Shown here in pieces: positions 2,433 to 38,480 of a DNA stretch of 64,000 nt. How positions within the stretch are numbered: position 1 is the first letter of the stretch; each line of letters starts with the position of its first letter. The notes under the pieces are model-generated. The model saw only the letters and a program-made list of their open reading frames with translations. It made no database searches and was not told where the DNA came from. A program made the position numbers and the translations under genes. The stretch spans positions 135,781 to 199,780 of the forward strand of contig JAFWJF010000002.1 of the NCBI GenBank assembly GCA_017511715.1, in the 5' to 3' direction. Origin of the DNA: Alphaproteobacteria bacterium (GTDB taxonomy: Bacteria; Pseudomonadota; Alphaproteobacteria; Rs-D84).

Positions 2433-2562
2433 AAATAAAACCCTTGTTCGTTGTCTGAGTAATGATATTAAGCACAGAATAAAATTGCAAGAAGTTTTTA
2501 TATCCGCTTGCAAGGTTATGTTTTTTTTGATAAAATAATATAAAAATGTGGGAAGGTTTCTT

Positions 2563-4800
2563 ATGAAAATGATAAAGATTTTGCCGGTTTTATTGGTGTT
2601 TCCATTGGTTGTATATGGGGCTTCTCGTACGGATTCAACTGTTCGTGTTGGTGTTGGACGTAATAACCAAGCGGGCGCAAGGATGCCTGCTATTTCTGGG
2701 GCCGTTGTGCAGGCCGCGTTGGAAAAAATTTCTGTTTCAGGTGGGCAAAAGCCCAAGTCAGAAACAAGTTCTGCGACCGTGGTTGCATCTGTGCCTGTGG
2801 CGACAGCATCTTCTGATGCAACTGTTTCGGCACCGGTTGATGCAGAGACTGTATCAGTTGTGGCAAGTGGTGATTGCAGGGATGCTTATCGTGCGTGTAT
2901 GGACAGTTTTTGTTTGTTGGAAGAAAGCCAGGGTGAAAGATGTGCGTGTTCAGATAATATAGAATACGCAAAAGGTAAGATTAAGACAATTCTTGCCATC
3001 CAAGCAGAAGCAGATAAGTTGTATACAGAAGGTGTTGAACGCGAACAATTGGGTGCAAAAGCCCGTTTGGTGTTTGCAGATAATAATACAAGTACAAAGA
3101 TTTCAAGTGTCGATTTTATGGGGTGGTTGTACGGCGATAAAGAAGATGTTGAAGAAAGTGGTGATGTTGGCGAAGATGTTGAATTAGGGGACGATTTGTA
3201 TCAGATGGCGGTTAAATATTGTTCTGCTGAACTGGATTCTTGTGGAAGCAAGGCCGAAATGGAATCTATGTTGTATTCGCGCATGATAGTCCAAGATTGT
3301 AAGAATTATGATTCTTATTTGGCAGACCAAAAACTTAATGCGGAATCTAATAAGCGCACCGCAGAATCTGCGGTTCGTAAAGCGCGTCTTGAAATGTTGG
3401 ATACAACGAACAAATACAATCGTGGTGAATGTTTGTTGGCGTTTCGTTCTTGTGTTGCAGACAAAGGTGGATGTGGTACGAATTTCGAGAATTGCCTTGA
3501 TAAAAAATTGTTGCAACGTCGTTCAAATGCCTGTGAAAATGTGTTAGACCAATGTATGGCAGTGCGTGATTATGTTATTGAAGATTGGACGGCAGAATCA
3601 AAAAGTATCTTGGCAGAGGCTGAAAAATATGCCGACAAAAACGAACGTTTAACATGTCTGGCGCGTGCACAAAACTGTTTGGAAGAGGGGTGCTCTACAT
3701 CAACAAACGCGGAATGTTTGACCAATGTAAATGTTGCGGCTGGAATCTGTCCTGTAATCACAGAATGTGATGCAAAAATTCCTGGTTTTCAGGCTGTTAT
3801 AAATGATAAATTGGGATATTTACAGATTAAGTTTTGTGAAAATGACATAGATAAATGCTTGCAAGATAAATGTGGTGTTGATTTTACAAAGCCTGAATGT
3901 GTTGGTAAACGCCCGTATGAAATAGCAGCACTTTGTCCCCAGGATATGTTCTCGTCTTGTAAGAATGTCGAACAATACGATATAATTGTACAGGCGGCAC
4001 TTTTGCAGATGGATTATCAAATATTGCAAGGTTGTGTGAATTATTTTGGTGAACAGTTAGGCAAAGTTTGTGGGACAGATATGGCGTGTTTACCGATTGA
4101 TGCAACCGTTGAATCTTTGACAGATTTGCCGGATACAGAAGAGGGTTTGCAAAATTTGCGTAGAACAGTCGTTGCGAATTCTGACGCGGCGGTTGAAGAA
4201 TTCTTTGTTCAATTTGAACAGGATAAGACAGTTGCAGCATGTGCTGATATGCAAAGTGCAGAGGTCGCAAAGAAGAGTTCTGTGAAACTTAAAGATAAAG
4301 AACCTTTGGGGGTAAGTGTGTTTAATACTGCTAAATTGTTGGCAAAAATGGCAGCGGAAAATCGCAATTTGCGTGAACTTGATTCTAAGATAGCGGAAAT
4401 TGCACGCGAAAAAGATTTGGAAGAAGCCAAAAAGATTTGTTTAAGTACATATAAGCCAGAAAAACCAAAAGGTTCAACAGATGACGATTCAGACGAAGCG
4501 AAATCTAATTACAGTTATATACGCACCGTGTCGTTTGAACCTGATTTGCGTAACTGTCATGTTTGTCGCAGACAGCAAGTTTGTGAAGAAGGTGGCGAAT
4601 CTGCAGCGACATCTGCATTGAAAGCGGCGGCGGGTGGTTTGTCTGCCGGGGCGGCTTCTGGAACAATGGTCAGTGCTGGATGGGGAACTGCGATTGGTGG
4701 ACTGGTTGGCGGAATCGGTGGCGCAGTGATGGGCGCAATGTCTGGTGGTAAAAAACAGTTCTGTCAAGAAGTTGAATCTTGTGAAGATATAAATATGTAA
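2563..4800 (+). CDS. Cys-rich secreted protein, CMDxFC-signature family, paralog 2
   Basis: GGAAGG RBS 6 nt before ATG 2563 (the ORF-track start 2548 is a GTG). Signal peptide [24 protein letters not shown]-rich linker, then [27 protein letters not shown]. More than 50 Cys. Tail ...[16 protein letters not shown]... followed by the Gly-zipper segment [42 protein letters not shown]. Confidence 0.7.
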
Positions 4801-4819: not shown

Positions 4820-7285
4820 ATGAGAAAAATATTAGGTTTCGGTTTTTTTGCAAGTTTGTTGGTGGCCTTGGTTGGTGTGGTGGATGCCGGTGCCGCAACA
4901 AAAAATACTGTTGTGAAAAAGCAGGCTGCATTACAGGCCGGAACAAAAGTGCGCACCAGATTAGCACCAACTGGTATTTATGATGAGGCTTGTTATAACC
5001 AATATTTTGGTTGTATGGATCAGTTTTGTATCGTTGATAATGAAAATGGTGGTTCGTGTATGTGCAGTGATGATGCCGCAAAATATGACGAACAGTTGGA
5101 AGCAATAAAAAATACTTTGGTGGAAGCAGAACGTATCAGCACAGAAGAGGTTGAAAAGATTCAAGCGGGGGCCAATGCTGATATTATATTTAATGGCGGT
5201 GAACGTATTTATAACGAAGAGGGTAATGTTGTAAAAGTCGGGGAAAAACCGAAAACACAAGTCACACTTTCGTCGTTTTCGTTGTTTGACACAGAGGAAG
5301 AAGATGTTGACGAATGGGTTGATATTGATTTATCTGATAAGGTAGGAAGGTCTTTGTACAATGCTGCGCATCGTTTGTGTGTTGAACAAATGTCAGAATC
5401 TTGCGACAAAGATATGATGATGCTGACCCAGTTGTATTCTCGTCAAATTATTTCTGATTGCAAGGGTTTGGCAAATTCCATTGCGCAAAAGAAACAAGAA
5501 GCGGATAGTATTTTAGCGAAAGCAAAGGCGGCGGTGCGCGGTGCATTGAAAGAAAGTTTTGAAGAAGCCAATAAATATGATCGCGGAACATGCATGGTTG
5601 AATATAAAAAATGTATGCGCAGTGAAGATGCTTGTGGGGCAAATTGGGAAAATTGTGTCTTTACAATTGCCTCTGAAAACATGCAAAACAATGCTGCAGA
5701 AAGCGTTGCCGGAACAAAAGTTGATACGATTAACACATATGATATAACCGCATCGACAATGGAAATATTAGAATCTAAACGTTTTATCTGTGAAAAAGTT
5801 TTAGATAATTGTATGGCGGTTCGTAATTATGTTTGGAATGATTTCTTGCGTGAATCTGCGCCAACAATTCGTTTGGCAGAACAAAATATAGAATCACAAA
5901 AACGTCAATCGTGTTTAAGCGATATTTCAGATTGTATCCAAAAGGCATGTAAAGATGATATCGTTGGCAAAGGCGAAGCAACAATGGATGCATGTCTTGC
6001 CCGTCCAGATATGGCACGTTCGTTCTGCAAAATTCAAATTGATCCATGCGAAAGAATGGAACCTCAAATTTGGGATTATGTAAAATCTAAATTGGCGGCA
6101 ATGCGTGTTGATGTTTGCACCCAGGAAGTTAAAGATTGTATCACGGATGAAAACAGATGCGGCAAAGATTTTATGAATTGTATTGGTATGGATTTCAAAT
6201 ATATTCATGATATGTGCCCACTTGATAAATTAGTGGTCTGCAAACAGGCAAACCCAGATTTCCAAATGTCTGATTTAGATTCTATGTTAATGGGGCTTTA
6301 TTTGAATATTGATAACAAGGCACTTGAAAACTGTGAAAATCTGGCAGAAATGAAAATGGCGGAATTATGTGGGTCAACAACAGATTGTAATGTTTTTGCC
6401 GCAGATGAATATCTGGGGACAAATTCAATCAGGTCCCAAAAAGACGGCAGTATATATCGTGTGACAGGTATGATTTCATTTGGTTCAATAAAGATGGGTA
6501 ATGCCACAGGCAGTGTGAAAGATAACGGCAAAGTTTTGTTGCCTGGTGAAATTGGAGTCAAAGATTATATCAGGGAAGTTAAAAAGAATAATAGAAGTGT
6601 AGAAAATGCCGATGCGATAATATCTTCGATTGAAGAAGAATTGAATAATATCGAAGGAACAATTAACAGGGCAATATCTTTGATAGAATCAGATCAACAA
6701 ATACAATATTGTATCAATGGTCGTGATTTATCTCAAATCAATGGTCAAAAAGCGAGTGCAAGAAATACAACAACGGCAAGATTCCCGAATTTGTTAAACC
6801 AGTATCGTGTGATTATTGGTATGGCTGCATTACGCAAGGCGCAAGATAACTATAACAAAAAAGTAAATGAAGAAATAGCGGAAGCCGCCAGAAATTCTTC
6901 TGTAGATCTTGCACAATATTTGTGTCAGAGAATTGCGGATGCAGGTTCAACATCCAGTAGGGATAACAAAATTATTGATGAAACGCCGTTGACCCCACCA
7001 TATGCGATATCTTATGATGTCGGTTCGGGGCTTAGCACAAAAGATTTGATTGCAAATGGTGCTGGCACTTCGGTAAAGACATCCGGTGTTGGTGGTGGTG
7101 AAACGGGAACTAGTATAAGCACACTTGTTAATGCGTCATTTGACCGCGAAAAAAGAAATTGTCATATTTGCCGTACTATAACAGCGGAAGCGTGTTCGCG
7201 CAAAGGTGGCAGTTGGTTCCGTACACGTGATATTAATTGTAAAACTGATGTTCATGAACCAAATTGTGAAGATGTCAAGATGTAG
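4820..7285 (+). CDS. Cys-rich secreted protein, CMDxFC-signature family, paralog 3
   Basis: Starts 20 nt after the stop of paralog 2, so likely co-transcribed. Signal peptide, then CYNQYFGCMDQFCIVDNENGGSCMCSD. Shares blocks with paralog 2: LYSR.I..DCK, RG.C....C.....CG.N.ENC, CMAVR.YV. C-terminal motif ...KRNCHICRT... Confidence 0.7.
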   Translation: MRKILGFGFFASLLVALVGVVDAGAATKNTVVKKQAALQAGTKVRTRLAPTGIYDEACYNQYFGCMDQFCIVDNENGGSCMCSDDAAKYDEQLEAIKNTLVEAERISTEEVEKIQAGANADIIFNGGERIYNEEGNVVKVGEKPKTQVTLSSFSLFDTEEEDVDEWVDIDLSDKVGRSLYNAAHRLCVEQMSESCDKDMMMLTQLYSRQIISDCKGLANSIAQKKQEADSILAKAKAAVRGALKESFEEANKYDRGTCMVEYKKCMRSEDACGANWENCVFTIASENMQNNAAESVAGTKVDTINTYDITASTMEILESKRFICEKVLDNCMAVRNYVWNDFLRESAPTIRLAEQNIESQKRQSCLSDISDCIQKACKDDIVGKGEATMDACLARPDMARSFCKIQIDPCERMEPQIWDYVKSKLAAMRVDVCTQEVKDCITDENRCGKDFMNCIGMDFKYIHDMCPLDKLVVCKQANPDFQMSDLDSMLMGLYLNIDNKALENCENLAEMKMAELCGSTTDCNVFAADEYLGTNSIRSQKDGSIYRVTGMISFGSIKMGNATGSVKDNGKVLLPGEIGVKDYIREVKKNNRSVENADAIISSIEEELNNIEGTINRAISLIESDQQIQYCINGRDLSQINGQKASARNTTTARFPNLLNQYRVIIGMAALRKAQDNYNKKVNEEIAEAARNSSVDLAQYLCQRIADAGSTSSRDNKIIDETPLTPPYAISYDVGSGLSTKDLIANGAGTSVKTSGVGGGETGTSISTLVNASFDREKRNCHICRTITAEACSRKGGSWFRTRDINCKTDVHEPNCEDVKM

Positions 7286-7395: not shown

Positions 7396-7749
7396 ATGAA
7401 AAAAATATCTGTTATGGCTTTGATTGCGTGTATGCCAATTTGTGGCGCGTTCGCTGGTCCCGGTAAAAATATGAACAATAATATGAATACACATCCTGCG
7501 GTTTGGAATGTCACAGAAGTTATTTCTTTGCCAGATGATACACCGGTTGTGATGCGTGGTCGTATAACAAAAAATATGGGAAACAATATTTTTGTTTTTG
7601 AGGATGCTTCTGGAACAATTATGATGGAAATCGATGAAGAATCTTGGAACGGTAATACGGTTCGTGTTGATGATGTTGTGACCGTTTATGGTAATGTAGA
7701 CAAAGGTTCTAATTATACTGAAATCGATGTTGAATCTATTGTAAAATAA
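7396..7749 (+). CDS. BOF/YgiW family periplasmic OB-fold protein
   Basis: About 117 aa with a signal peptide. Size and the pattern ...NIFVFEDASGTIMMEIDEESW...VTVYGNVDKG...TEIDVESI match the YgiW/BOF (DUF388) fold. Confidence 0.65.
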   Translation: MKKISVMALIACMPICGAFAGPGKNMNNNMNTHPAVWNVTEVISLPDDTPVVMRGRITKNMGNNIFVFEDASGTIMMEIDEESWNGNTVRVDDVVTVYGNVDKGSNYTEIDVESIVK

Positions 7750-13346: not shown

Positions 13347-13433
13347 TCGTTGCTTTATAAATATAATCTTGCCTTGACTTCGTAAAAGCAGTAATATTAA
13401 ACAAGAATAAATTTGTATTTAGGAATGGAAAAA

Positions 13434-16400
13434 ATGGCAAGGTTAATTGTAGATGGAAATTGGGCTGCGGCTGATGTTGCATATCGTTGTGTCGATTGTG
13501 CGGCTATTTATCCGATTACCCCAAGTAGTACGATGGGCGAATTGTCTGATGAATGGGCGTTTCAGCATAAAAAAAATATTTGGGGTGTTGTTCCTGAAAT
13601 AATTGAGATGCAATCGGAAGCGGGTGCCGCTGGTGCGTTGCATGGTGCGTTGCAAATGGGGGCGTTGGCGACAACTTTTACTGCATCCCAAGGACTTCTT
13701 TTGATGATTCCAAATATGTATAAAATAGCCGGCGAACAAACCCCATTTGTTATGCATGTTGCCGCGCGTGCGCTGGCAACACATGCGTTGTCTATTTTCG
13801 GTGACCACAGTGATGTGATGGCGGTGCGTAATACCGGGTTCGCGATGCTGTCTTCGCATAATGTTCAGGCGGCACACGATATGGCGGCGATTGCACATGC
13901 GTCAACATTAAAAAGTCGCGTTCCATTTTTACATTTTTTTGATGGATTCAGAACAAGTCATGAAGAATCTGCATTGGAAAGGATAAGTGATGAAGTTTTG
14001 CGAGAAATGTTGCCTGAAAAATTAGTTTTGGAAAATCGCAGGCGCGGTATGTCACCAGACAAGCCAACGATTCGTGGAACTGCGCAAAACCCAGATGTTT
14101 ATTTCCAAGGGCGCGAAGCCGCAAATATGTTGTACGATTCTTTGCCACAAATAGTTGCGGATGAAATGGAAAAATTCGCAAAATTGACCGGACGCAGATA
14201 TGGTGTGGTCGATTATATCGGGGATAAAAATGCCAAGTATGTAATTGTTTCAATGGGTTCAAGTTGCGAAACAATTGCTGAAACCTTGCCGTATTTACCA
14301 CGCGGAGTTGGTATGATATGTGTTCACTTGTTTAACCCTTTTCCGGTTGATGCGTTCTTGAAACTGTTGCCAAATTCGGTGGAACAAATTGCGGTGCTGG
14401 ACAGAACAAAAGAAGCAGGTTCAATCGGAGAACCACTTTACCAAAATGTGCGTAATATTGTTGATATGAAAATAAAAGTTTTCGGTGGGCGTTATGGTTT
14501 GGGGTCTAAAGAATTTAAGCCACGTGATGTGAAAGCCATAGTTGAATATATGATGCGTGGCGAATTACATCATAATTTTACAGTCGGTATAGATGACGAT
14601 TTGACACATTTATCACTTGATATAGATAAAACTTTCACAATTGAAAACAAAGATGTGCAGACTGCGGTACTTTATGGAATTGGCAGCGATGGAACAGTTG
14701 GGGCGGTAAAAAATATTGTGAAAATCGTTGGGGAAAATTCTGAATTGTATCCACAATCTTACGCGGTCTATGATTCTAAAAAATCTGGTGGAATAACACA
14801 ATCACATATTCGTTTTTCGTCCGAACCAATTAAAAGTGAATATTTGGTGGACAGTGCTGATTTTATTTGTGTTTCTAATTTTATGATTGCACAAAGGTTT
14901 GATGTTTTTTCCTCTTTACGTGCAGGCGGTACGGTTATGATAAACACTTCTTTGCCCCCAGAAAAAGCCTTTGCGAATTTGCCGCGTTCCGCACAAGAAC
15001 ACTTGATTCGTATGCGTGCAAATGTATATTTTCTTGATGCAAACGCTGCAGCAAATGAATTGGGCTTAGGCAATCGAATCAATACTTTTATAATGTTAAA
15101 TTTCTTTAATTTAACAAAAGTTATCAATCCGGATACAGCGAAAGATGCGGCGAAAGTTGCAATTGAAAAAACTTACAAAAAGAAAGGTATGGATGTCGTT
15201 CATGCAAATTGGGCGGCGGTGGACAGGGCAGAATCTTATCTGAAAAAATACAAATTGCCATCCGTTGTTTCTGAATCAGCACCAGATTTTATACCTGCAA
15301 TGACAGAAAATACCCCGTCTGAAATCGCGGGGACACTTGGTGAAATGGCGGCAGGGCATGGTGACGATATTCCGGTGTCGCGTTTCAAGGTCGATGGTGT
15401 GTTTGGTGGTGGGCAATATCCTGTCGGAACATCAAAATATGAAAAGCGTGCATTGGCAACACGTGTCGCAGTGTGCGATTTAGATAAATGCATCCAATGT
15501 GGAAAATGTTCGATGCTTTGTCCGCATGGCGCGATTCGTATAAAGGTTATGGGCAAAAACGAAATGCAGGCAGCGCGTGCAAACGGGATAACTGTTGTGC
15601 CGATGAAGACACCTGAATTAGGGGCTGGGTTATTTTATACATTAAATATATCACCATCTGATTGTACTGGATGTGGTTTATGTATGAAAAATTGTCCGGT
15701 GGGCGCACTATCTTTGGTGCCGATGGCGGATGGAATTAAAAACCAAAAAATATTTGATGCCGCATTAAATATCCCGGATATAGATAAACAAAAATTAAAT
15801 CTTAATATTCCAAAGCATGTTGAATTGTTGCCCCATTATTTCGAGTTTCCGGGGGCATGTGCAGGTTGTGGTGAAACGCCGTATGTTCGTTTAATGGCGC
15901 ATTTGTTTGGGGATAAGATGGTTGTTGCAAACGCAACAGGCTGTTCTTCTATTTATGGCGGTAATTTGCCGACAACGCCGTGGTGCAGTGATAAAAATGG
16001 TCGTGGACCGGCATGGTCTAATTCGCTGTTCGAAGATAATGCGGAATATGGTTTGGGGATGCGAATTGCACTGAATCAAAGGCGGTCTGCATTGCGTTCT
16101 GTTTTGTTCGAATTAGGCTTTGATAATGTTGAACAGATGATGAATACGGTCGGAACAGAAAATCAACGCGAAGTACAAAACAGTTTGCGTGTTCAGTTGT
16201 CTGGTATAGAAAATCCGCGTGCGCGTTATGCAGAAGGTCTGATTGATGCGATTGTTGATAAATCTGTATGGATAGTTGGTGGTGATGGTTGGGCATACGA
16301 TATTGGGTATGGTGGTGTCGATCATATTTTACACAGTGGCGAAAATGTAAATATTCTTGTTTTGGATACAGAAGGTTATTCAAATACCGGCGGTCAGCAA

Positions 16401-16931
16401 TCTAAATCTACGCCTTTTGGTGCATCGATGAAATTTGCGATTGGTGGCAAAGAACACGCGAAAAAAGATTTGGGTTTAATTGCCATGATGTCGGGTGCGT
16501 ATGTTGCACAAATTGCAATTGGTGCAAATCAAGCACAGGCTGTGCGCGCATTCCGTGAAGCGGAAGCCTTCAATGGTCCGTCGATTATTTTGGCGTATGC
16601 ACCATGCATTGCGCATGGGTTTGCGTTGCAAAACGGTGTTGAACATCAAATCAATTTAGTGAATACAGGTGCGTGGCCACTTTATAGATTTAATCCGTCA
16701 AATATTGAAAAGGGTCAAAACCCGCTGACCATAGATTCGCATGTTGGGACACCGTTCCCACTGGAAGAATTTATGAAAAGTGAAACTCGATTTGCGCTGG
16801 CGCGGTCAGTTAATCCTAATTTTGATAAATTGGTTGACGAAGCCAAGGCAAATAATTTATATAAAACAGAGCTAAAACAACATATTGCAAATTTTGTTGT
16901 GAATAAAAACAAAGACAACGGTGAAGGATAA
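13434..16931 (+). CDS. nifJ: pyruvate:ferredoxin (flavodoxin) oxidoreductase, single-polypeptide PFOR
   Basis: About 1165 aa. N-terminus ...DGNWAAADVAYRCVDCAAIYPITPSS..., two 4Fe-4S ferredoxin motifs (CIQCGKCSMLCPHG; CTGCGLCMKNCPVG), and a TPP-binding region GGDGWAYDIGYGG. AGGA RBS 9 nt before ATG 13434. Confidence 0.85.
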   Translation: MARLIVDGNWAAADVAYRCVDCAAIYPITPSSTMGELSDEWAFQHKKNIWGVVPEIIEMQSEAGAAGALHGALQMGALATTFTASQGLLLMIPNMYKIAGEQTPFVMHVAARALATHALSIFGDHSDVMAVRNTGFAMLSSHNVQAAHDMAAIAHASTLKSRVPFLHFFDGFRTSHEESALERISDEVLREMLPEKLVLENRRRGMSPDKPTIRGTAQNPDVYFQGREAANMLYDSLPQIVADEMEKFAKLTGRRYGVVDYIGDKNAKYVIVSMGSSCETIAETLPYLPRGVGMICVHLFNPFPVDAFLKLLPNSVEQIAVLDRTKEAGSIGEPLYQNVRNIVDMKIKVFGGRYGLGSKEFKPRDVKAIVEYMMRGELHHNFTVGIDDDLTHLSLDIDKTFTIENKDVQTAVLYGIGSDGTVGAVKNIVKIVGENSELYPQSYAVYDSKKSGGITQSHIRFSSEPIKSEYLVDSADFICVSNFMIAQRFDVFSSLRAGGTVMINTSLPPEKAFANLPRSAQEHLIRMRANVYFLDANAAANELGLGNRINTFIMLNFFNLTKVINPDTAKDAAKVAIEKTYKKKGMDVVHANWAAVDRAESYLKKYKLPSVVSESAPDFIPAMTENTPSEIAGTLGEMAAGHGDDIPVSRFKVDGVFGGGQYPVGTSKYEKRALATRVAVCDLDKCIQCGKCSMLCPHGAIRIKVMGKNEMQAARANGITVVPMKTPELGAGLFYTLNISPSDCTGCGLCMKNCPVGALSLVPMADGIKNQKIFDAALNIPDIDKQKLNLNIPKHVELLPHYFEFPGACAGCGETPYVRLMAHLFGDKMVVANATGCSSIYGGNLPTTPWCSDKNGRGPAWSNSLFEDNAEYGLGMRIALNQRRSALRSVLFELGFDNVEQMMNTVGTENQREVQNSLRVQLSGIENPRARYAEGLIDAIVDKSVWIVGGDGWAYDIGYGGVDHILHSGENVNILVLDTEGYSNTGGQQSKSTPFGASMKFAIGGKEHAKKDLGLIAMMSGAYVAQIAIGANQAQAVRAFREAEAFNGPSIILAYAPCIAHGFALQNGVEHQINLVNTGAWPLYRFNPSNIEKGQNPLTIDSHVGTPFPLEEFMKSETRFALARSVNPNFDKLVDEAKANNLYKTELKQHIANFVVNKNKDNGEG

Positions 16932-21839: not shown

Positions 21840-21942
21840 ATATGCGCATGTATTATATACATTTTATTTCTTTTTTCAAATAAATAATTTCTATTAAATT
21901 TGGGAATAAAATCAGAGTGTTTTATTAAATGTGTGTTTGACA

Positions 21943-21971
21943 ATAATGTGTTTATGCTTTAACATCCTTTG
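21943..21971 (+). promoter_or_regulatory. sigma70-type promoter (TTGACA-N17-TAACAT) for the autotransporter gene
   Basis: TTGACAataatgtgtttatgcttTAACAT, with an AAAGGAGAG RBS before ATG 21997. Confidence 0.5.
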
Positions 21972-21996
21972 TGAGATAAGCAAAGGAGAGCACATC

Positions 21997-24900
21997 ATGA
22001 AATTATCACGAACTGCATTGAAAGAATTAACCGCCGCGTATCGCGCCGTTTTGCGCCATGGTATTTTGTGTAACGCGATTGCATTGGGCTTGGTCGCCGT
22101 ACCAGCAATGGCAGAGCGTCTTGCCATTGAAGGTGGAAATCCCATAACAGAAACAGATAAGGTGTATTCTAATAATTCTGGTCAAACGTTTGGTGGCGGA
22201 ATTGATAATTACGGCGGTAATGTGACCGAAATAAATGTGACAATTCAAGGTAATGCTGCGAACCGTGGTGGTGGTGTTAATAATGATGGTGTTGCAATAT
22301 TTAATGGTGGCTTGATTGGTGGCACAACAGCAGGACTTGGTAATCAAGGCAGTGGCGGTGGTGCTATAGCGAACACGGGTACATTAACAATAAATGGTAC
22401 CACGATACAAAATAATGTTGCCACAAATTATGGTGGTGGCATATATAATTCTTTGAATGCTTCTGGTACTTCGGCGGCGATGGTGTCTGTTAGCAACGCC
22501 ACGTTGAAAGGTAATTCTGCCGGTCAGTTTGGTGGGGCTATATATTCTCAGGGTACAAAAGATATTGTTACTGGGGCTTTGAATATCACAACATCGAATT
22601 TCTTTAACAATTCTGCGGCAAATACAAAAGCCGGCGGTGCGATATACTTGCTTGACAGTGGTAATGTGACAATCAAGGGGGCTAAGTTTGGTGGATATGA
22701 TGAAACAGACCCGGAAAATCCGATATCGTTGGGTAATACAGCAGGCAAGGGGGGCGCCGTTTATATCGGGGGTGTAAATGCCCCAACACATGGCGAAGCT
22801 ACGGTTACTATTACCAAAGATGAATCAAATAACAAGACAATCTTTGATCATAATGTTGCCAATGGCGCAGGTGCAGAAGGATATGGTGGGGCGCTAGTCC
22901 ATAATGGATATAAAACATTTTTAGATTTAAGCAATGCAGAATTCACAAACAATAGCGCGACAAATCAAGCTGGCGCATTGTTGATTAGTGTTACCGCGGG
23001 CACGTTGCGGGCTGATGGTTTAGCAGCAGGAATAAATAATGTTTTGTTTGCAAATAATACGTCTGCGGGTCAGGGCGGTGCCATGTGGAATGGTGCTGTG
23101 GCAATGATTACCAATACAGAATTCAACAATAATTCAACCACAGGCAATGGCGAAGGTGGTGGTGCGGTCGATTTGGGTGCAGTATCAAAAACAGCATTTG
23201 ATAATGTAACATTTACAAGTAATACAGCTGCATCATCTGGTGGTGCAATCGCAACACGCAATTTTAGTTCAGGACAAAATGCCAATGCAAAATTGGATAT
23301 TTATAGTACGACATTCAAGGGTAATTCTGCGGCAATGAACGGTGGTGCAATTTATAATAATTTCTATAACAGTATCGGACATACCGGTTCGGTTTATGTA
23401 AGCGGGGCAACATTTGGTGGTACTGGCACGGGCGAAGGCAACAGTGCTGCAAATGGTGGGGCGATTTATAACAATGCAGACGGAACGCAAACTGGTAATA
23501 TGTACATCACTAATTCGACATTTACCGGCAATTTCGCAGTGGTTCCTGATACATATACTGGTGCGACTTATAAGAAAGAAGGCGTTGGTGGTGCAATTGC
23601 TTCGTCAGGCAGTTTGACAATCAATGCTTCAACATTTACTGGTAATACAGCGCGTACAACAGGTTCTGGGTGGGGACTTGGTGGGGCGCTTTCAACCGTT
23701 ACAGTTGATGGCTTTGCCACAGACATGACCATTATTGGTTCAACGTTTACCGGTAACAGTGCAGATGTTGGTGGTGCCGTTTATGGCATGCTTAAAGCAA
23801 CAAATCAACATGGTTTAAGCACTATAACGATTTCTGGTTCTACATTTGAAGGCAACAGTGCGCAGGCTGGTTCTGCAATAGCAAACTTTGACATAATGTC
23901 AGTTTCGGATACCACATTTTCAGGTAATACAACATTTAATATCGATGATGGTGGTACGGTGTTCTTGGGGTCTGAATCTATTACATCATTTACCGGTGGC
24001 GATTTTACTGATAATGAATCAAACACTGTTGGTGGCGCAATCGCAACACGTAGCATAAATAACGATAACTCTTATGCAAAGTTAGATATTGTTGACACAA
24101 CATTCAAGGGTAATTCGGCTGGCACAAATGGTGGCGCAATTGATAACAATTTCTATGACAGTGTCGGGCATGCTGGTTCTGTTTATGTAAGCGGTGCAAC
24201 ATTTGGTGGTACTGGTACAGGCGAAGGTAACAGTGCTGCAAATGGTGGCGCGATTTACAATCATGCAAACGCGACCCGAACGGGTAGTATGTATTTAACA
24301 GGTGTCAATTTCTTTGGCAATACTGCGACAACTGCTGGTGGTGCCATATATAATGAAGGCGTTATAACTTTGGCGGCGGATAATACATTTAAGAATATTA
24401 AAGCAGGTGGTGTTGCAAACGATATTTATAATGATGGGACGTTGAATATCGCATCTGGAACGACAACGTTGGATGGCGGTGTTACTGGTAATGGAACGTT
24501 GAATATTGCCAGTGGCGCAACATTGAATATCGGAAGTGCAACTGTTTCACAGGGAACCATCAATTTGGGCGGAACTTTAATTGCTGATTTAGTGAGTGGC
24601 GCAGACCCAATCTTTACGGCAACGACATTTGAAGGGACTGGTAATTTAAGTTTGGCTATTGAAAAGGAAGGAACTTATAATTTGTTTGGTAATGCTGTGT
24701 TTGCAAATGCACAACAGCAAATAACCAGCACGTTTTATGATTTAGATTGGACAACAAATGATGGCAAAACCGTTATAGCAACCAAGAAATCTGCTGATAA
24801 AATTGCAGAAGAAACTGGTTTAACAACAGAATCTGCTGTGGCTGTTTCGCATATCGTGGATGCCGGCTCATCAGATACAGGAACAAAACAGATAAAGGAA

Positions 24901-25914
24901 TTGTCTGTGGCTGTTCAGGAAAAATTAGCGTCTGGAAATACTGCTGCGATTGAACAAGCAACCAAGGCGGTGCATCCAGAAAAAGAAGCGGTCGTACAAT
25001 CTGTTTCTGCATCTGTTCAACATGCGGTTGTTAATTTGGCGGCAAATCGTATGTCAATGCCAAGAACAAGACGTGTTATGCCAGCGCATAATTATTATGG
25101 CAACGTTTATGGGCGCAATGGCGGTGATGTGAATTTTACTTCTGGCGGTATTTGGGCGCAAGGTTTGTTTAATAAATCTAGGCAGCATGATGCATTCAAT
25201 GGTTATACGCGTGGAATCGCGTTTGGATTGGATGGGACAATCAACAGGCATTGGACAATTGGTGCGGGGTATTCGTATGCTCATTCTGATATAGATGGAA
25301 CTGCGCGTAATACTGAAATTGATTCTAATACATTGTTCTTGTACGGTCAGTATAAACCTGCACAATGGTATGTGAATGCAATCGCGAATTATACAATGTC
25401 TGATTATTCTGAAATTGGAACGATTATTGATGATAAAACGATATTTGCAGACTATAAAGTTAATTCGTTTGGTGGCGCGTTGGCAACAGGATATGATTTC
25501 AGAAATGGCATAACCCCAGAACTTGGGTTGCGCTATATACATGTCAGTGCTGATGATTACGCAAATTCGTATGGTGTAAAAACACATATGGATGATAATG
25601 ATTTCTTGACAGGGGTTATCGGCGCAAAGTACGCATTTAATGTGGATGTGTCCAGACACACAAAAATCATGCCACAACTTAATGCGGGCTTTAAGTATGA
25701 TTTGTTGTCTGATAAACAAATTGCCACAGTTGCGATGCCGGGGATAAATGCTTATACAATCGAAGGGAATCGGTTGAACCGTATCGGAGGCGAATTTGGT
25801 ATCGGGTTAGGTATGCAGTATCGTACTTTGGAAATGTCTGTTAATTATGACATCGATGTCCGTGAAGATTATACTTCCCAGACAGGTATGTTGAAATTCA
25901 GATATAATTTCTAA
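21997..25914 (+). CDS. Pmp-like autotransporter (polymorphic-membrane-protein-type passenger with GGA[IV]/FxxN repeats, C-terminal beta-barrel)
   Basis: Extended signal peptide MKLSRTALKELTAAYRAVLRHGILCNAIALGLVAVPAMA. More than 20 GGAIY/GGAIA motifs and FTGN/FKGN/FEGN/FSGN motifs. C-terminal ~280 aa has alternating hydrophobic residues and ends ...KFRYNF. Confidence 0.8.
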   Translation: MKLSRTALKELTAAYRAVLRHGILCNAIALGLVAVPAMAERLAIEGGNPITETDKVYSNNSGQTFGGGIDNYGGNVTEINVTIQGNAANRGGGVNNDGVAIFNGGLIGGTTAGLGNQGSGGGAIANTGTLTINGTTIQNNVATNYGGGIYNSLNASGTSAAMVSVSNATLKGNSAGQFGGAIYSQGTKDIVTGALNITTSNFFNNSAANTKAGGAIYLLDSGNVTIKGAKFGGYDETDPENPISLGNTAGKGGAVYIGGVNAPTHGEATVTITKDESNNKTIFDHNVANGAGAEGYGGALVHNGYKTFLDLSNAEFTNNSATNQAGALLISVTAGTLRADGLAAGINNVLFANNTSAGQGGAMWNGAVAMITNTEFNNNSTTGNGEGGGAVDLGAVSKTAFDNVTFTSNTAASSGGAIATRNFSSGQNANAKLDIYSTTFKGNSAAMNGGAIYNNFYNSIGHTGSVYVSGATFGGTGTGEGNSAANGGAIYNNADGTQTGNMYITNSTFTGNFAVVPDTYTGATYKKEGVGGAIASSGSLTINASTFTGNTARTTGSGWGLGGALSTVTVDGFATDMTIIGSTFTGNSADVGGAVYGMLKATNQHGLSTITISGSTFEGNSAQAGSAIANFDIMSVSDTTFSGNTTFNIDDGGTVFLGSESITSFTGGDFTDNESNTVGGAIATRSINNDNSYAKLDIVDTTFKGNSAGTNGGAIDNNFYDSVGHAGSVYVSGATFGGTGTGEGNSAANGGAIYNHANATRTGSMYLTGVNFFGNTATTAGGAIYNEGVITLAADNTFKNIKAGGVANDIYNDGTLNIASGTTTLDGGVTGNGTLNIASGATLNIGSATVSQGTINLGGTLIADLVSGADPIFTATTFEGTGNLSLAIEKEGTYNLFGNAVFANAQQQITSTFYDLDWTTNDGKTVIATKKSADKIAEETGLTTESAVAVSHIVDAGSSDTGTKQIKELSVAVQEKLASGNTAAIEQATKAVHPEKEAVVQSVSASVQHAVVNLAANRMSMPRTRRVMPAHNYYGNVYGRNGGDVNFTSGGIWAQGLFNKSRQHDAFNGYTRGIAFGLDGTINRHWTIGAGYSYAHSDIDGTARNTEIDSNTLFLYGQYKPAQWYVNAIANYTMSDYSEIGTIIDDKTIFADYKVNSFGGALATGYDFRNGITPELGLRYIHVSADDYANSYGVKTHMDDNDFLTGVIGAKYAFNVDVSRHTKIMPQLNAGFKYDLLSDKQIATVAMPGINAYTIEGNRLNRIGGEFGIGLGMQYRTLEMSVNYDIDVREDYTSQTGMLKFRYNF
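23241..23520 (+). repeat. internal ~280-bp direct repeat, copy 1, inside the autotransporter passenger
   Basis: Encodes ATRNFSSGQNANAKLDIYSTTFKGNSAAMNGGAIYNNFYNSIGHTGSVYVSGATFGGTGTGEGNSAANGGAIYNNADGTQTGNMYIT. Near-identical at the nucleotide level to 24034..24313. Confidence 0.75.
24034..24313 (+). repeat. internal ~280-bp direct repeat, copy 2
   Basis: Encodes ATRSINNDNSYAKLDIVDTTFKGNSAGTNGGAIDNNFYDSVGHAGSVYVSGATFGGTGTGEGNSAANGGAIYNHANATRTGSMYLT. Confidence 0.75.
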
Positions 25915-34217: not shown

Positions 34218-35543
34218 ATGGAAAAAGCAAAATTAATTATTAAAAAGATGGCAGCCCGGGGGTTAACATCTTGTAAAAAAGTTGGTAATGTTCATACATT
34301 ATCCCGTGTTATTTTAGGGATTGCAATAGTGATGGTGTTAATCGCTGTTGGTGTGGTTTGTTTTTATAAACCTGCCAGAGAGGCTGTGTTTTCCAGCGAA
34401 GTACACACCGTTGTTGATGTAAAGTCTGGGGATACCCTTTCCAAAATATTAGGGGAACAGGGCTTTTCAATACAGGATATAAATGCTATCTCTAAAAACC
34501 TAAAAAAAGATGCTGATTTTGTGACTTTGCGCGCAGGGCGCGATAAGTTTGACTTTGTGCGTGAAAGTGAAAATGCGCCAATTTCCAAAATTGTGATTGA
34601 AAATGGTCCTTGGAATAAAATTGAAATTGATTGCGGGACACCAGATACTTGGCAATGTCAAAAAATAGAAATTGCGCGTGATACACGTGTCGCGTACAAA
34701 CAGGGCGAAATTGCCAATGGCAGCAGTTTCTATTTGTCCGCAATGGACGCTGGCATCCCAGAAGGTATTATTTTGGATGTTTATGATTTGTTGGCTTTTG
34801 AAATGGACTTTGAACGCGATATCAGGGCAGGACAAAAATTCTATGTTTTGTATGAAGAAAATTTTGCTTCTGATAAAAAGGTGGACAATGGGCATGTCTT
34901 GGCGGTGTCTTTTGATGCGTTGCGTGGTAATGTCCAAATGTATCGCTATGTCAAACCAGACGGAAAGTCTGGATATTATGATGCCAATGGAAATGGAGCA
35001 ATCAAATCGTTAAAAAGAACACCGATAAACAATGCGAAAATTACATCTAAATTCTCTGGTGGGCGCAAACATCCTGTTCTTGGGTTTACGCGTGCACACA
35101 AGGGTGTTGATTTCCGTGCACCAACAGGGACACCAATTCCTGCGGCGGGTTCCGGCCGTGTTATTGCGCGCAGTTTTAATCGTGGACATGGCAATTTTGT
35201 AAAGATAAGGCACAATGGGACATTTGAAACTTTGTATGCGCACATGTCTAAATTTGCCAAGGGGGTAAATGTCGGTACGGTCGTACGCCAGGGACAAATT
35301 ATAGGTTATTCTGGTTCTACCGGGCTTTCTACGGGGCCACATTTACATTACGAAGTTATTAAAAACGGTGTGCACGTAAACCCGATGACTGTTAAATTGC
35401 CGGCAATTGATAATTTGGATGCAACAAACAAAAAGATGTTTATGGAACGCAAGGCATTAATAGATTCAACCATTAAATCTTTGGCGGATAATCCAAATCA
35501 AGTGGTTAGATTGGATGGTGATGAAAAAATACAAAAAAAGTGA
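34218..35543 (+). CDS. M23-family peptidase with N-terminal TM anchor
   Basis: C-terminal LytM/M23 domain HKGVDFRAPTGTPIPAAGSGRV...GSTGLSTGPHLHYEV (HxxxD and HxH). TATAAT at 34204-34209 immediately upstream of ATG 34218. Confidence 0.7.
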   Translation: MEKAKLIIKKMAARGLTSCKKVGNVHTLSRVILGIAIVMVLIAVGVVCFYKPAREAVFSSEVHTVVDVKSGDTLSKILGEQGFSIQDINAISKNLKKDADFVTLRAGRDKFDFVRESENAPISKIVIENGPWNKIEIDCGTPDTWQCQKIEIARDTRVAYKQGEIANGSSFYLSAMDAGIPEGIILDVYDLLAFEMDFERDIRAGQKFYVLYEENFASDKKVDNGHVLAVSFDALRGNVQMYRYVKPDGKSGYYDANGNGAIKSLKRTPINNAKITSKFSGGRKHPVLGFTRAHKGVDFRAPTGTPIPAAGSGRVIARSFNRGHGNFVKIRHNGTFETLYAHMSKFAKGVNVGTVVRQGQIIGYSGSTGLSTGPHLHYEVIKNGVHVNPMTVKLPAIDNLDATNKKMFMERKALIDSTIKSLADNPNQVVRLDGDEKIQKK

Positions 35544-35592
35544 AACAAAAAAACATTAGACAAATAAAAAACGCTTCCCTTTTTTTTGTTTT

Positions 35593-35603
35593 GTGATATA
35601 ATG
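35593..35603 (+). promoter_or_regulatory. extended -10 promoter element (TGaTATAAT) inside a motif shared with 39783..39791
   Basis: CTTTTTTTTGTTTTGTGATATAATGCACAAAGAGA. A near-identical block precedes gene 39806. Confidence 0.5.
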
Positions 35604-35633
35604 CACAAAGAGAAACATCAAAAGGTAGGGAAG

Positions 35634-36452
35634 ATGGGCAAACATCTGTGGCTTGTATCTATTTTAATGATGGTTTTTTTGGTGTCTGATGCTGTGGCTG
35701 CGGGTGTGCTTGTGCCTGCTAGCCAGTTCCCGAATTTTGCAAATGGCGAATATATGCAACCGAACATGATTTATCAGAATTCTGCGTTGGCTGTTAATAT
35801 GGATGGTGTTTACGAAGGTGAAGTTTGGGCAAAAGCAGTATATACTGATGGTGCGATTTGTTCGCCGGGTACGTATTTGCCAGCAAATAAAGTGGTTTGC
35901 GAAACGTGTTTAGAAGACAATTATTGTCTAGGTGGGACATTCCTGCTTTCTGCAGAGAATCAAGGAATAACGAGCTGTGTAGATGGTTTATCATCTCCTG
36001 CTGGTGCATCAAGTGCAGATATGTGTGACCTTTTGCATATAACGTGTGATGCAGGAACTTATTTGCCGGCAGGCGCGACAAGTGCAAGAGATTGTGCAAT
36101 TTGTCCAGAAAACAAATATTGTGGTGATGATAATCCAAGAGAGTTTGTTGCAAATGCTGTAGAAGACCAAGGTGTAGCCAGTTGTCCATCTGGTTTGGTT
36201 TCGCCACGGGGAACGACCAGTGTTGGTGGTTGCGGCAAGATAATGCATATCGGGGAAGACGTGTTGTATTTAACGTCTGAACAGCAAACAACACCTGCGT
36301 TAGCAGTGAAATTGGAAGGCAAAGTTTATTATGCAAAAATGACACCAGGTGCAAAGGCGATTAATGAGGCAACTAATACATCTTTAAGAACAAGAGTAGA
36401 TGGAGTAGAATATTCCATTCAAGATAATGTGAAGTTGTACAACAACAAATAA
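35634..36452 (+). CDS. secreted protein with ephrin-receptor-like / GCC2_GCC3-type cysteine repeats (eukaryote-like)
   Basis: Signal peptide MGKHLWLVSILMMVFLVSDAVAA, then repeats CSPGTYLPANKVVCETCLEDNYCLGG / CDAGTYLPAGATSARDCAICPENKYCGDD / CPSGLVSPRGTTSVGGCG, i.e. C.xGTY......C..C....YC.G modules. RBS AAGGTAGGG. ORF-track start 35586 rejected. Confidence 0.55.
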   Translation: MGKHLWLVSILMMVFLVSDAVAAGVLVPASQFPNFANGEYMQPNMIYQNSALAVNMDGVYEGEVWAKAVYTDGAICSPGTYLPANKVVCETCLEDNYCLGGTFLLSAENQGITSCVDGLSSPAGASSADMCDLLHITCDAGTYLPAGATSARDCAICPENKYCGDDNPREFVANAVEDQGVASCPSGLVSPRGTTSVGGCGKIMHIGEDVLYLTSEQQTTPALAVKLEGKVYYAKMTPGAKAINEATNTSLRTRVDGVEYSIQDNVKLYNNK

Positions 36453-36472
36453 TAAACCCAAGAGGAACGATA

Positions 36473-36970
36473 ATGATAAGAAAGTCAATTTTGTTTTTTG
36501 CTATTATGACAGTTTTTGTATCGGTTGATGCATTTGCTGTGGCTAGCGTGAAAAAATTAGGAACAGCCGGTGTTTCAACAAGTGTGGCAAAGCCGGTTAC
36601 TGTATTACCAAAGGCACCAGTCAGTGTACCAAGTGACGATTCGTTCCAGACACGTGTTGCAACGACTCCTGCGGGCAGAATCGCATCGGGCGATGCCAAC
36701 ACACGTTTATCTGCCGGGGTAAGTTCGATTAAAGCAATCAGTGCAGGCAGTCTTTCTAATCTCCCATCTGGCGGTGGAACAAGTCAACATGGAACCGCAG
36801 GGGGGGTGACAGATGTGGTCACATCTGGAACTGGAAATTATGTGACAGACGTTTCAATGCGTGGTGATAACAAGTTGGGTGTGACGAAAACTAATTTGTT
36901 GTATGCGCCTGTGCGTCGTGGTTCTAATAATGCGGTTGTGGATACCGTAGAAATATGGGTTGTTAAATAA
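36473..36970 (+). CDS. secreted hypothetical protein (S/T/G-rich)
   Basis: Signal peptide MIRKSILFFAIMTVFVSVDAFA, GGAAC RBS, terminator follows. Confidence 0.45.
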   Translation: MIRKSILFFAIMTVFVSVDAFAVASVKKLGTAGVSTSVAKPVTVLPKAPVSVPSDDSFQTRVATTPAGRIASGDANTRLSAGVSSIKAISAGSLSNLPSGGGTSQHGTAGGVTDVVTSGTGNYVTDVSMRGDNKLGVTKTNLLYAPVRRGSNNAVVDTVEIWVVK

Positions 36971-36987
36971 TATCATATGTTTGCTCT

Positions 36988-37019
36988 AAAAAACCGCTGA
37001 TATTCAGCGGTTATTTTTT
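36988..37019. terminator. bidirectional rho-independent terminator
   Basis: AAAAAACCGCTGAtattCAGCGGTTATTTTTTT. Confidence 0.7.
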
Positions 37020-37217
37020 TGCGCTTATGAACAGTGCAAATATCCATCCTATAAACGACCACCCAAACATAACCGACCCCATGCGAACGCGCATTTGATC
37101 AAATTTAGAACGATTGTTTGCAGATGCAAGATACATCGGGGTTAAAATAATACAGACCAGAATACCAATAACTGCGATATATTTTAACCCTAACAAAATT
37201 TTTGCTATACTAATCAT
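37011..37217 (-). CDS. small two-TM membrane protein
   Basis: 68 aa with two hydrophobic helices, immediately downstream of eno. Confidence 0.35.
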   Translation of the reverse strand: MISIAKILLGLKYIAVIGILVCIILTPMYLASANNRSKFDQMRVRMGSVMFGWSFIGWIFALFISAKK

Positions 37218-38480
37218 TTATATACCGTATTTTGCGTTTGACCCAAGTTCTTCATCTATACGAATTAATTGATTGTATTTTGCCATTCGGTCTGTGCGTG
37301 ACATAGAACCCGTTTTGATTTGACCTGCATTTGTTGCAACGGCTAAATCTGCAATTGTGGTGTCTTCGGTTTCGCCACTGCGATGAGAAACAATAACCCC
37401 ATAATTAGCATCTTGTGCCATTTTGATTGCGGTTAATGTTTCTGTCAGAGAACCGATTTGGTTAACTTTAATAAGGATTGCGTTTGCGCAGTTGCTTTCA
37501 ATACCTTTTTTTAGGCGAATCGGATTCGTCACAAATAAATCGTCGCCAACCAACTGACATTTGTCCCCAATTTCTGAGGTTAATTTTTTCCATGCATCCC
37601 AATCTTCTTCTGCCAATGCATCTTCGATGGAAATCACAGGGTACTTAGAAATCAATTCTTTGTAAAAATCTATCATTTCGTCAGATGTTTTTTCTGCGCC
37701 CTCAAAATGATAAATTCCATCATGATAAAATTCAGAAGACGCAACGTCCAGACCTATTGATACATCGGCACCCGGGACGTAACCTGCGACTTTGATTGCT
37801 TCGATAATGGTATCTAATGCTTCGTTGCAAGTGTTAAAGTTTGGGGCAAAGCCACCTTCGTCACCAACGTTTGTTGAATGATGTGATTTTTTTAGAATAG
37901 ATTTCAGATTATGAAAAATTTCCGATCCCATACGAATCGCTTCGACTTCGTTTTTTGCGCCGTTTGGGATAATCATAAATTCTTGTGCGTCAAGGCCGTT
38001 ATCTGCGTGTGCGCCGCCGTTAACAATGTTCATCATTGGACGTGGTAAAACACATGGATTAGCATTGCCAAATATATTTGCAATATGCTTATAAAGCGGT
38101 ATCTTTTGTGCGTTTGCTGCCCCGTGCGCAACCGCCAATGATACAGATAAAATCGCGTTCGCGCCAAGTTTCTCTTTGTTTGCTGTGCCATCCAGATTCA
38201 GCATTTTGTTGTCAATATCAGATTGTTTTGATGCATCCATACCAATCAAAGCAGGTGCGATAATTTCGTTTACATTTTTTACGGCATTAAAAACAGATTT
38301 GCCCATATATGTTTTGTCGCCATCGCGCAATTCCAACGCTTCAAATGAACCTGTCGATGCGCCGGATGGAACAGATGCGCGCCCAAATGCGCCCCCGTCT
38401 AACCAAATATCGCATTCAACAGTTGGGTTGCCACGCGAATCCATAATTTGACGTGCATGAATTTTTGTAATAGAAAACAT
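37218..38480 (-). CDS. eno: enolase (phosphopyruvate hydratase)
   Basis: [44 protein letters not shown]..., active-site blocks [17 protein letters not shown] and [12 protein letters not shown]. Confidence 0.95.

Follow-up and report, generated by a model that had tools for sequence, protein, structure and literature searches.

A hypervariable two-gene cassette encoding a cysteine-module protein and a small partner in a Candidatus Enterousia-like gut alphaproteobacterium

A two-gene cassette was characterized in a 64,000-nucleotide stretch of DNA from an uncultured alphaproteobacterium (contig JAFWJF010000002.1; the whole stretch is referred to as the window). The first gene, here called A (open reading frame [ORF] 35634..36452 on the plus strand, ATG start, stop included), encodes a 272-aa protein in which two cysteine-rich modules are followed by a conserved C-terminal domain (CTD). 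The second gene, B, encodes a small, predicted secreted protein. Judged from sequence comparisons, the superfamily to which the cysteine module belongs is known, whereas the module itself is a new and divergent bacterial form of it. The evidence leans, if only slightly, toward A being a Sec-exported, modular, surface adhesin-like protein that is held by its CTD together with B.

The protein has exactly 12 cysteines, at residues 76, 89, 92, 98, 115 and 131 and at residues 138, 154, 157, 163, 184 and 200, which make up two six-cysteine modules (Table 1). When the two modules are aligned with each other the BLOSUM62 local score is 106, against 25.8 ± 4.9 (maximum 50) in 2000 shuffles (z = 16), and by this measure they are true internal repeats. 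An earlier note on this DNA had described repeated cysteine modules, and both strings that it quoted, CSPGTYLPANKVVCETCLEDNYCLGG and CDAGTYLPAGATSARDCAICPENKYCGDD, are present verbatim in A. The repeats and the motif are real, but the module is longer than described, as only its first four cysteines had been given. The full module covers ~57 aa and follows the pattern C-x2-G-x-Y-L-P-A-x4-C-x2-C-x4-Y-C-x-G-G-x(9-12)-Q-G-I-x2-C-x2-G-x2-S-P-x-G-x6-C. A module hidden Markov model (HMM) made from relatives matches the A ORF at E = 9e-43 with two domains (best single domain, E = 3e-23). Among the six-frame ORFs of the window this HMM found no ORF besides A (next best E = 0.55), and no further copy of the module or the CTD is located elsewhere in the window. 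The AlphaFold2 model of A has predicted local distance difference test (pLDDT) values >90 across residues 70-265, and the modules, ~57-63 aa each, probably form a rigid disulfide-stapled rod.

A belongs to a large family. An exhaustive HMM search of 1.84 billion protein representatives retrieved 1,701 at E <= 1e-3, 922 at E <= 1e-10 and 245 at E <= 1e-30, and lengths range from 160 to 6,218 aa among the 150 best representatives listed. Canonical modules were counted 407 times in 136 of 142 representatives, with a maximum of 33 in one protein. The shared format is a variable passenger followed by one cysteine module and the CTD of ~65 aa, where the passenger consists of 1-33 cysteine modules with or without Flg_new, leucine-rich-repeat (LRR)-like and other cysteine domains. 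A, with its two modules, represents the smallest format of the family, and larger relatives carry Flg_new and LRR-like repeats, both typical of surface adhesins. One 1,979-aa member (locus L010, 535-6474) contains LRR-like repeats of ~24 aa (GSIPHDLFAGISGSPASxMFxSTFxGCxGLTG), many Flg_new repeats and "CWC" domains, ends with one cysteine module plus the CTD, and has B downstream. A 1,484-aa relative with 85 cysteines, from a different alphaproteobacterial metagenome-assembled genome (MAG; L019, 2431-6885), has an internal CTD followed by a "CWC"-type domain and no B downstream. At locus L002 the A gene is broken by a run of N (~7430-7540), which is a scaffold gap or a masked stretch. Repeat-rich genes of the A family probably break metagenome assemblies, and thus family sizes are likely underestimated.

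The class of the module was sought by scanning 134 diverse single modules from relatives one by one against Pfam. At E <= 0.01, 49 of the 134 modules match PF07699 (Ephrin_rec_like; best 5.7e-8), and the other matches are to DUF7631 (16), NCD3G (13), TNFR_c6 (12) and TNFR_ELAPOR1 (7). With the threshold tightened to E <= 6e-5, about the gathering cutoff, 5 of the 134 modules still match, all of them to PF07699 and to no other family. Among close relatives, at E <= 1, 15 of 29 match PF07699 and 14 of 29 match TNFR_ELAPOR1_6th; relative P0008 spans the full PF07699 model (1-48/48) with 22.7 bits, and relative P0042 reaches 23.2 bits. Searched against PDB, a profile made from the 134 modules finds human ELAPOR1 (E = 1.5e-7) and p75NTR (E of ~0.2), whereas a profile of the close family was marginal (ELAPOR1, E = 0.07), so that significance required the broader profile. 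These matches place the modules in a divergent bacterial branch of the TNFR-like/Ephrin_rec_like superfamily, an assignment that applies at the family level, with the window copy itself sub-threshold.

Two sets of results count against this assignment. First, A itself is significant for no Pfam family. Its PF07699 match has E = 0.83 and 9.9 bits (cutoff 23.1), covers model positions 13-36 of 48 and falls at residues 137-162, in module 2. Second, eukaryotic and PDB proteins align with the first half of the module only (the first ~30 residues): ELAPOR1 repeats can be aligned with the C-x2-G-x-Y ... C-x2-C ... Y pattern of this half, and usually not with the second half. A scores E = 0.56 against TNFR_ELAPOR1_6th and does not match TNFR_c6, module 1 of the window scanned singly has no PF07699 match at E <= 0.01, and single-sequence searches of A against NCBIfam and, by phmmer, against PDB returned nothing significant. 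Fold comparison of the A model with PDB by Foldseek ranked TNFR2, EphA2, CaSR, ELAPOR1 and EphA4 at the top, none of them significantly. Two other Pfam matches, EGF_Sp38_C (E = 0.0014) and BA14K, were dismissed as short cysteine-pattern matches that are below cutoff and not family-wide. DUF7631 was not used for classification; its matches span only model positions ~2-18 (C-x2-C...Y-C-x-GG), and it rises above cutoff only by summation in one 31-module protein. The TNFR/ephrin-receptor-like class that the earlier note had named is therefore upheld by the modules of the relatives, through PF07699 and the ELAPOR1 profile match, but not by A alone; the check that it had proposed, a PF07699 or TNFR_c6 profile run on A itself, came out negative with the values given above.

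Comparison with the known members of the superfamily shows where the A module departs from them. Like A, the PF07699 proteins (Eph-receptor-related proteins, ELAPOR1, SCUBE, and complement and adhesion proteins) have an extracellular cysteine module of ~50 aa that starts with C-x2-G-x-[YF], contains C-x2-C and occurs in tandem arrays. They differ in that the second half of the A module (YC-x-GG ... QGI-x2-C ... SP-x-G ... C) is unaligned to ELAPOR1 or TNFR; moreover, A has a bacterial host, and its combination of N-terminal region, modules, CTD and partner gene is not known from any of them. The cysteine-rich domains of TNFR proteins (PF00020; TNFR2, p75NTR, LTbR) and of CaSR (PF07562, NCD3G) are likewise six-cysteine modules of ~40-60 aa that form elongated disulfide-stapled rods, but the loops between cysteines 4 and 5 and between cysteines 5 and 6 are longer in the A family, the fold and PDB-sequence matches are non-significant (E = 0.14-0.4), and no ligand-binding residues are known to be common to the two groups.

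The eukaryotic flavor of these matches could be explained by A being a host-mimicry effector recently acquired from a eukaryote, that is, a TNFR/ephrin-receptor-like copy secreted to disturb host signaling. PF07699 has been described as being of ancient eukaryotic origin, with sporadic bacterial cases read as horizontal gene transfer (PMC6993872), the carriers have reduced genomes and probably depend on a partner (PMC12306168), and the best cross-kingdom match is human ELAPOR1. We nevertheless consider this explanation unlikely. No close eukaryotic homolog occurs among the matches examined (taxonomy is unassigned for most of the 1,701 representatives), and the eukaryotic similarity is remote and confined to the first ~30 residues of the module. 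The GC content at third codon positions of A is native (0.311 vs. 0.32-0.34 in neighboring genes; GC of the window, 39.6%), and the module has its own signature (YLPA, YCxGG, QGI, SPxG), which has diversified into at least hundreds of bacterial clusters. Furthermore, neither the window nor the loci examined yielded a dedicated effector-secretion system. An ancient eukaryote-to-bacterium transfer may still have occurred, because the literature holds PF07699 to be eukaryotic in origin (PMC6993872).

The CTD closes all close relatives, with the consensus CGK(I/V)(M/L)H(V/I)G.D.LYLT...TTPALAVK.DG.VYYAK...L.T.IDG.EYSIHDNT over ~65 aa. Of 101 representatives with a best match that extends into the CTD, 95 (160-5,094 aa long) have it at their very C-terminal end. 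In the AlphaFold2 model it has a pLDDT of 90.5 and six beta-strands arranged as three hairpins. Searches with the CTD gave 0 meaningful Pfam matches in 42 members, a best E of 1.1 against PDB sequences and a best E of 1.8 for its model against PDB folds (Foldseek). Neither the CTD nor the C-terminus of B corresponds, by profile or fold, to a known sorting or anchor family (type IX secretion system [T9SS] CTD, autotransporter barrel, YadA anchor, LPXTG, PEP-CTERM). To our knowledge, T9SS is not expected in Alphaproteobacteria. The CTD, protein B and the organization of the cassette are undescribed as far as databases and literature searches show.

Against BFVD, the CTD model (36231..36449) gave marginal matches to three uncharacterized proteins (TM 0.55-0.61, E 0.09-0.5, ~20% identity). 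These proteins (A0A8S5NPH6, A0A8S5SL66, A0A8S5SD73) come from gut-metagenome contigs labeled Myoviridae or Podoviridae sp., and could be distant relatives or mis-binned bacterial contigs. If A were a phage-derived receptor-binding (fiber) protein and B its assembly chaperone, one would expect A to be variable and modular and to end in a conserved domain, with a small gene downstream, as is found here, and the three fold matches to gut "phage" proteins would also fit. Yet both A and B carry Sec signal peptides, and the cassette is surrounded by housekeeping genes whose synteny is conserved. Phage databases were also searched: tblastn found none in 50,697 phage genomes, IMG/VR yielded none with patterns from the A alignment, and the best PHROGs match has E = 0.035. 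With no phage-genome, IMG/VR or significant PHROG match, a phage origin was rejected and is regarded as extremely improbable.

The partner gene B encodes, in order, a signal peptide, an AFAV(A/P)SVKKLG motif, a variable low-complexity linker, into which many homologs have a short coiled-coil-like segment inserted, and a conserved stretch of ~55 aa at the C-terminus with the motif GNYVTDV..DNKL.VTKTNLLYAPV....EIWVVK. It has no family in Pfam, NCBIfam, PHROG or PADLOC, and its best PDB profile match has E = 0.14. In 13 of 15 independent loci the gene immediately 3' of A is a B homolog. The pairing is kept when A has 180, 600, 1,060 or 1,979 aa, and also in a different neighborhood, with RNase J upstream and rpsD downstream. 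The hairpin 3' of B is the sole terminator-like site in 35300-37300; we infer that A and B are co-transcribed and that this terminator closes the A-B unit.

In the window and at syntenic loci, A is directly downstream of an M23/Csd3-type peptidase gene on the same strand. This position, the presence of Sec signal peptides only and the formation of disulfides in the periplasm would suit a structural protein of the periplasm or the envelope interior that is functionally linked to the neighboring M23 peptidoglycan peptidase and is not exposed at the surface. However, the cassette has other neighbors elsewhere, as just described, and A has its own putative promoter-like region while a terminator follows B. 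The size range of the family, its hypervariability and its adhesin-type repeats are also atypical of periplasmic housekeeping proteins. A role of this kind thus seems improbable.

Sequence divergence of the cassette stands out from that of its surroundings. The proteins encoded around the cassette in the window share 79-99% identity with their counterparts at Enterousia MAG loci. When compared with the syntenic loci L002, L003, L007 and L011, the M23 peptidase is 90-94%, enolase 90-93% and LptB 97-99% identical, whereas A is ~50% and B 28-39% identical. At the DNA level the CTD-coding stretch is the only alignable part of A. Averaged over the 15 loci, identity reaches 61% in the CTD, which was found in all 15, 54% in the C-terminus of B and 42-46% in the modules; the middle of B is undetectable. 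Between L003 (8192-8294) and L007 (5028-6192), which represent ~95% identical strains, a 1.16-kb indel lies inside A with its junction in a repeated module. In the A gene of L007, three nearly identical modules stand in tandem, pointing to a recent expansion of the repeats or to recombination. Between B and enolase, a 68-aa membrane protein (37011..37217, minus strand) keeps its synteny with 72-76% identity and has a weak match to Imm_superinfect (PF14373).

A tightly linked, hypervariable two-gene cassette is also what one would expect if A were a secreted polymorphic toxin or bacteriocin-like cysteine-rich protein and B its cognate protective or immunity protein. Polymorphic toxins, however, keep a conserved N-terminal part and vary towards the C-terminus, and the A family is reversed in this respect. 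There is also no toxin domain and no PADLOC or Pfam match, and B, with its own signal peptide and conserved C-terminal domain, does not belong to an immunity-type fold family. We regard a toxin-immunity pair as very unlikely, and the identity of the cassette as a defense system was rejected for lack of a PADLOC match.

For the surface adhesin-like function favored here, the following mechanism is proposed. Sec would take A and B across the inner membrane. At the cell envelope, the CTD of A would then join the conserved C-terminus of B in an invariant unit for attachment or assembly, perhaps with contact between the two anchoring A. The cysteine modules and the other repeats would be the exposed, fast-evolving part, which touches a partner or host or helps the cell to escape recognition by phage or the immune system; the modules may serve as rigid exposed spacers or as binding units under diversifying pressure from the partner, the host, phage or the immune system. 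Module number would change through recombination between repeats. This arrangement resembles modular surface adhesins with a C-terminal anchor (autotransporters, T9SS CTD cargo, Listeria-Bacteroides-repeat proteins) in its repeat passenger of variable length with an invariant terminal domain, in the Flg_new repeats of larger members and in its hypervariable locus. It differs from them in that the CTD of A matches no known anchor or sorting family and, at ~65 aa, is too small for a beta-barrel, and in that those systems have no counterpart to the dedicated small partner B.

Several points speak against an anchored surface adhesin. The only export signals of A and B are Sec signal peptides, and no outer-membrane translocation route was identified. 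The placement of A and B at the surface is deduced from the sequence. Hypervariability was judged from identity contrasts. Finally, B was undetected at two of the 15 loci (L018 and L019).

The elements of the cassette are listed in Table 1. The start of A was chosen among three candidates, the others being a TTG at 35586 in the ORF list and an ATG at 35601 in the public gene call P0001. Homologs of A share the N-terminus M-[GDN]-K-[HR]-L... and all start at the position equivalent to 35634; the ATG at 35634 is therefore preferred. Both the ORF and the signal peptide described previously hold up, the former as a real gene with this start supported by homologs and the latter by inspection. The N-terminus MGKHLWLVSILMMVFLVSDAVA|AG has a positive n-region, a hydrophobic core and an AxA motif, with residue 23 at the end of A-V-A, and reads as a classical Sec signal peptide; the AlphaFold2 model shows a helix with low pLDDT there. 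The region that follows (residues 24-75, pLDDT 59-71) is detectable in 7 of the 15 related loci, with a mean identity of 46%. The putative promoter region was not called by a consensus scan because it has no -35 match.

Table 1. Elements of the A-B cassette and their positions in the window
Feature	Position	Strand	Evidence
Putative promoter/ribosome-binding region of the cassette: extended -10-like TGATATAAT (~35596-35604) and AGGTAGGGAAG immediately 5' of the ATG	35595..35633	+	Read from the sequence; inference only
Predicted signal peptide of A, residues 1-23, MGKHLWLVSILMMVFLVSDAVAA	35634..35702	+	Inspection; homologs with equivalent N-termini
Conserved N-terminal region of A, residues 24-75, ...QPNxxYxNxA...NMxGVYxGxVxAxAVY...	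35703..35858	+	Homolog alignment
Cysteine-rich module 1, residues 76-131, six cysteines	35859..36026	+	Cysteine pattern; module HMM; pLDDT >90
Cysteine-rich module 2, residues 138-200, six cysteines; 3-aa and 4-aa insertions relative to module 1	36045..36233	+	Cysteine pattern
CTD of A, residues 200-266, CGKIMHIGEDVLYLTSEQQTTPALAVKLEGKVYYAK...LRTRVDGVEYSIQDN	36231..36431	+	Most conserved part of the cassette
Partner gene B, 165 aa, secreted (predicted)	36473..36970	+	Signal peptide; 20 nt 3' of the A stop
Intrinsic-terminator-like hairpin AACCGCTGA-TAT-TCAGCGGTT, then T-run	36992..37021 (hairpin 36992-37012)	+	9-bp stem, 5 GC pairs

In related loci the N-terminal region of A is also carried by an upstream paralog, which is absent from the window (L012 2762-4045, L013 4307-5683, L016 4759-5841, L017 4834-5913, and L009 2677-3838 as two ORFs). 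There it is followed by a degenerate module without most of its cysteines, and the 3' part of the gene encodes a cysteine domain (CWC...W[VL]F...C..xCAxxCA) and then a Flg_new (Listeria-Bacteroides repeat) C-terminus that replaces the CTD.

A carrier scan covering one genome per GTDB species found 13 loci. All 13 are in MAGs named Candidatus Enterousia sp. or (uncultured) Alphaproteobacteria or proteobacterium, from samples such as rumen, sheep, horse feces and roe-deer colon. By its sequence, the source of the window is a Ca. Enterousia-like gut alphaproteobacterium of the order Rs-D84. Proteins of this type had been said to occur in bacteria mainly in amoeba-associated or intracellular lineages, which does not describe the carriers, as these are herbivore-gut MAGs with no known amoeba or intracellular association, although reduced, host-associated genomes do fit. 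Enterousia and other Rs-D84 genomes are mostly <1 Mb, without the tricarboxylic acid cycle, respiration and most biosynthesis, and have been proposed to be obligate partner-dependent symbionts or parasites (PMC12306168). Elsewhere in the window, a pyruvate:ferredoxin oxidoreductase of 1,172 aa (13413..16931, plus strand) agrees with published accounts of Rs-D84 as strictly fermentative anaerobes. Another large surface protein, an autotransporter of 1,327 aa (21931..25914, plus strand), has Chlamydia-PMP-type (Chlam_PMP) repeats and a C-terminal beta-barrel and shows that an outer membrane and type V secretion are present in this organism. Two adjoining ORFs of 750 and 821 aa (2548..4800 and 4820..7285, plus strand) have no Pfam match at E <= 1e-5.

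For this lineage, the adhesin-like reading of A can be extended, tentatively and with considerable doubt, to a role for the whole family. The CTD of A and B might constitute an envelope display system of Rs-D84 that presents hypervariable arrays of 1 to >30 modules per protein at the cell surface, and these arrays might be the main tool for attachment to, or uptake by, a eukaryotic or microbial partner in the herbivore gut. In the literature, Ephrin_rec_like/TNFR-type modules are held to have originated in eukaryotes and to occur only sporadically in bacteria (PMC6993872). The A family, with at least 1,700 sequence clusters, is built mainly from a divergent module of this kind, and its traceable members are from a genome-reduced, uncultured gut lineage. 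If the display-system reading is true, no larger expansion in bacteria of a domain otherwise assigned to eukaryotes would be known.

The more distinctive features of the locus are those that the earlier note had missed, namely the CTD, the partner gene B and the hypervariability. The CTD of A and the C-terminus of B are two candidate new domain families for databases. Together, these features would offer handles on the attachment target of Enterousia, on how a diderm with a genome of <1 Mb displays giant disulfide-rich proteins, and on whether, and in which direction, the module moved between kingdoms.

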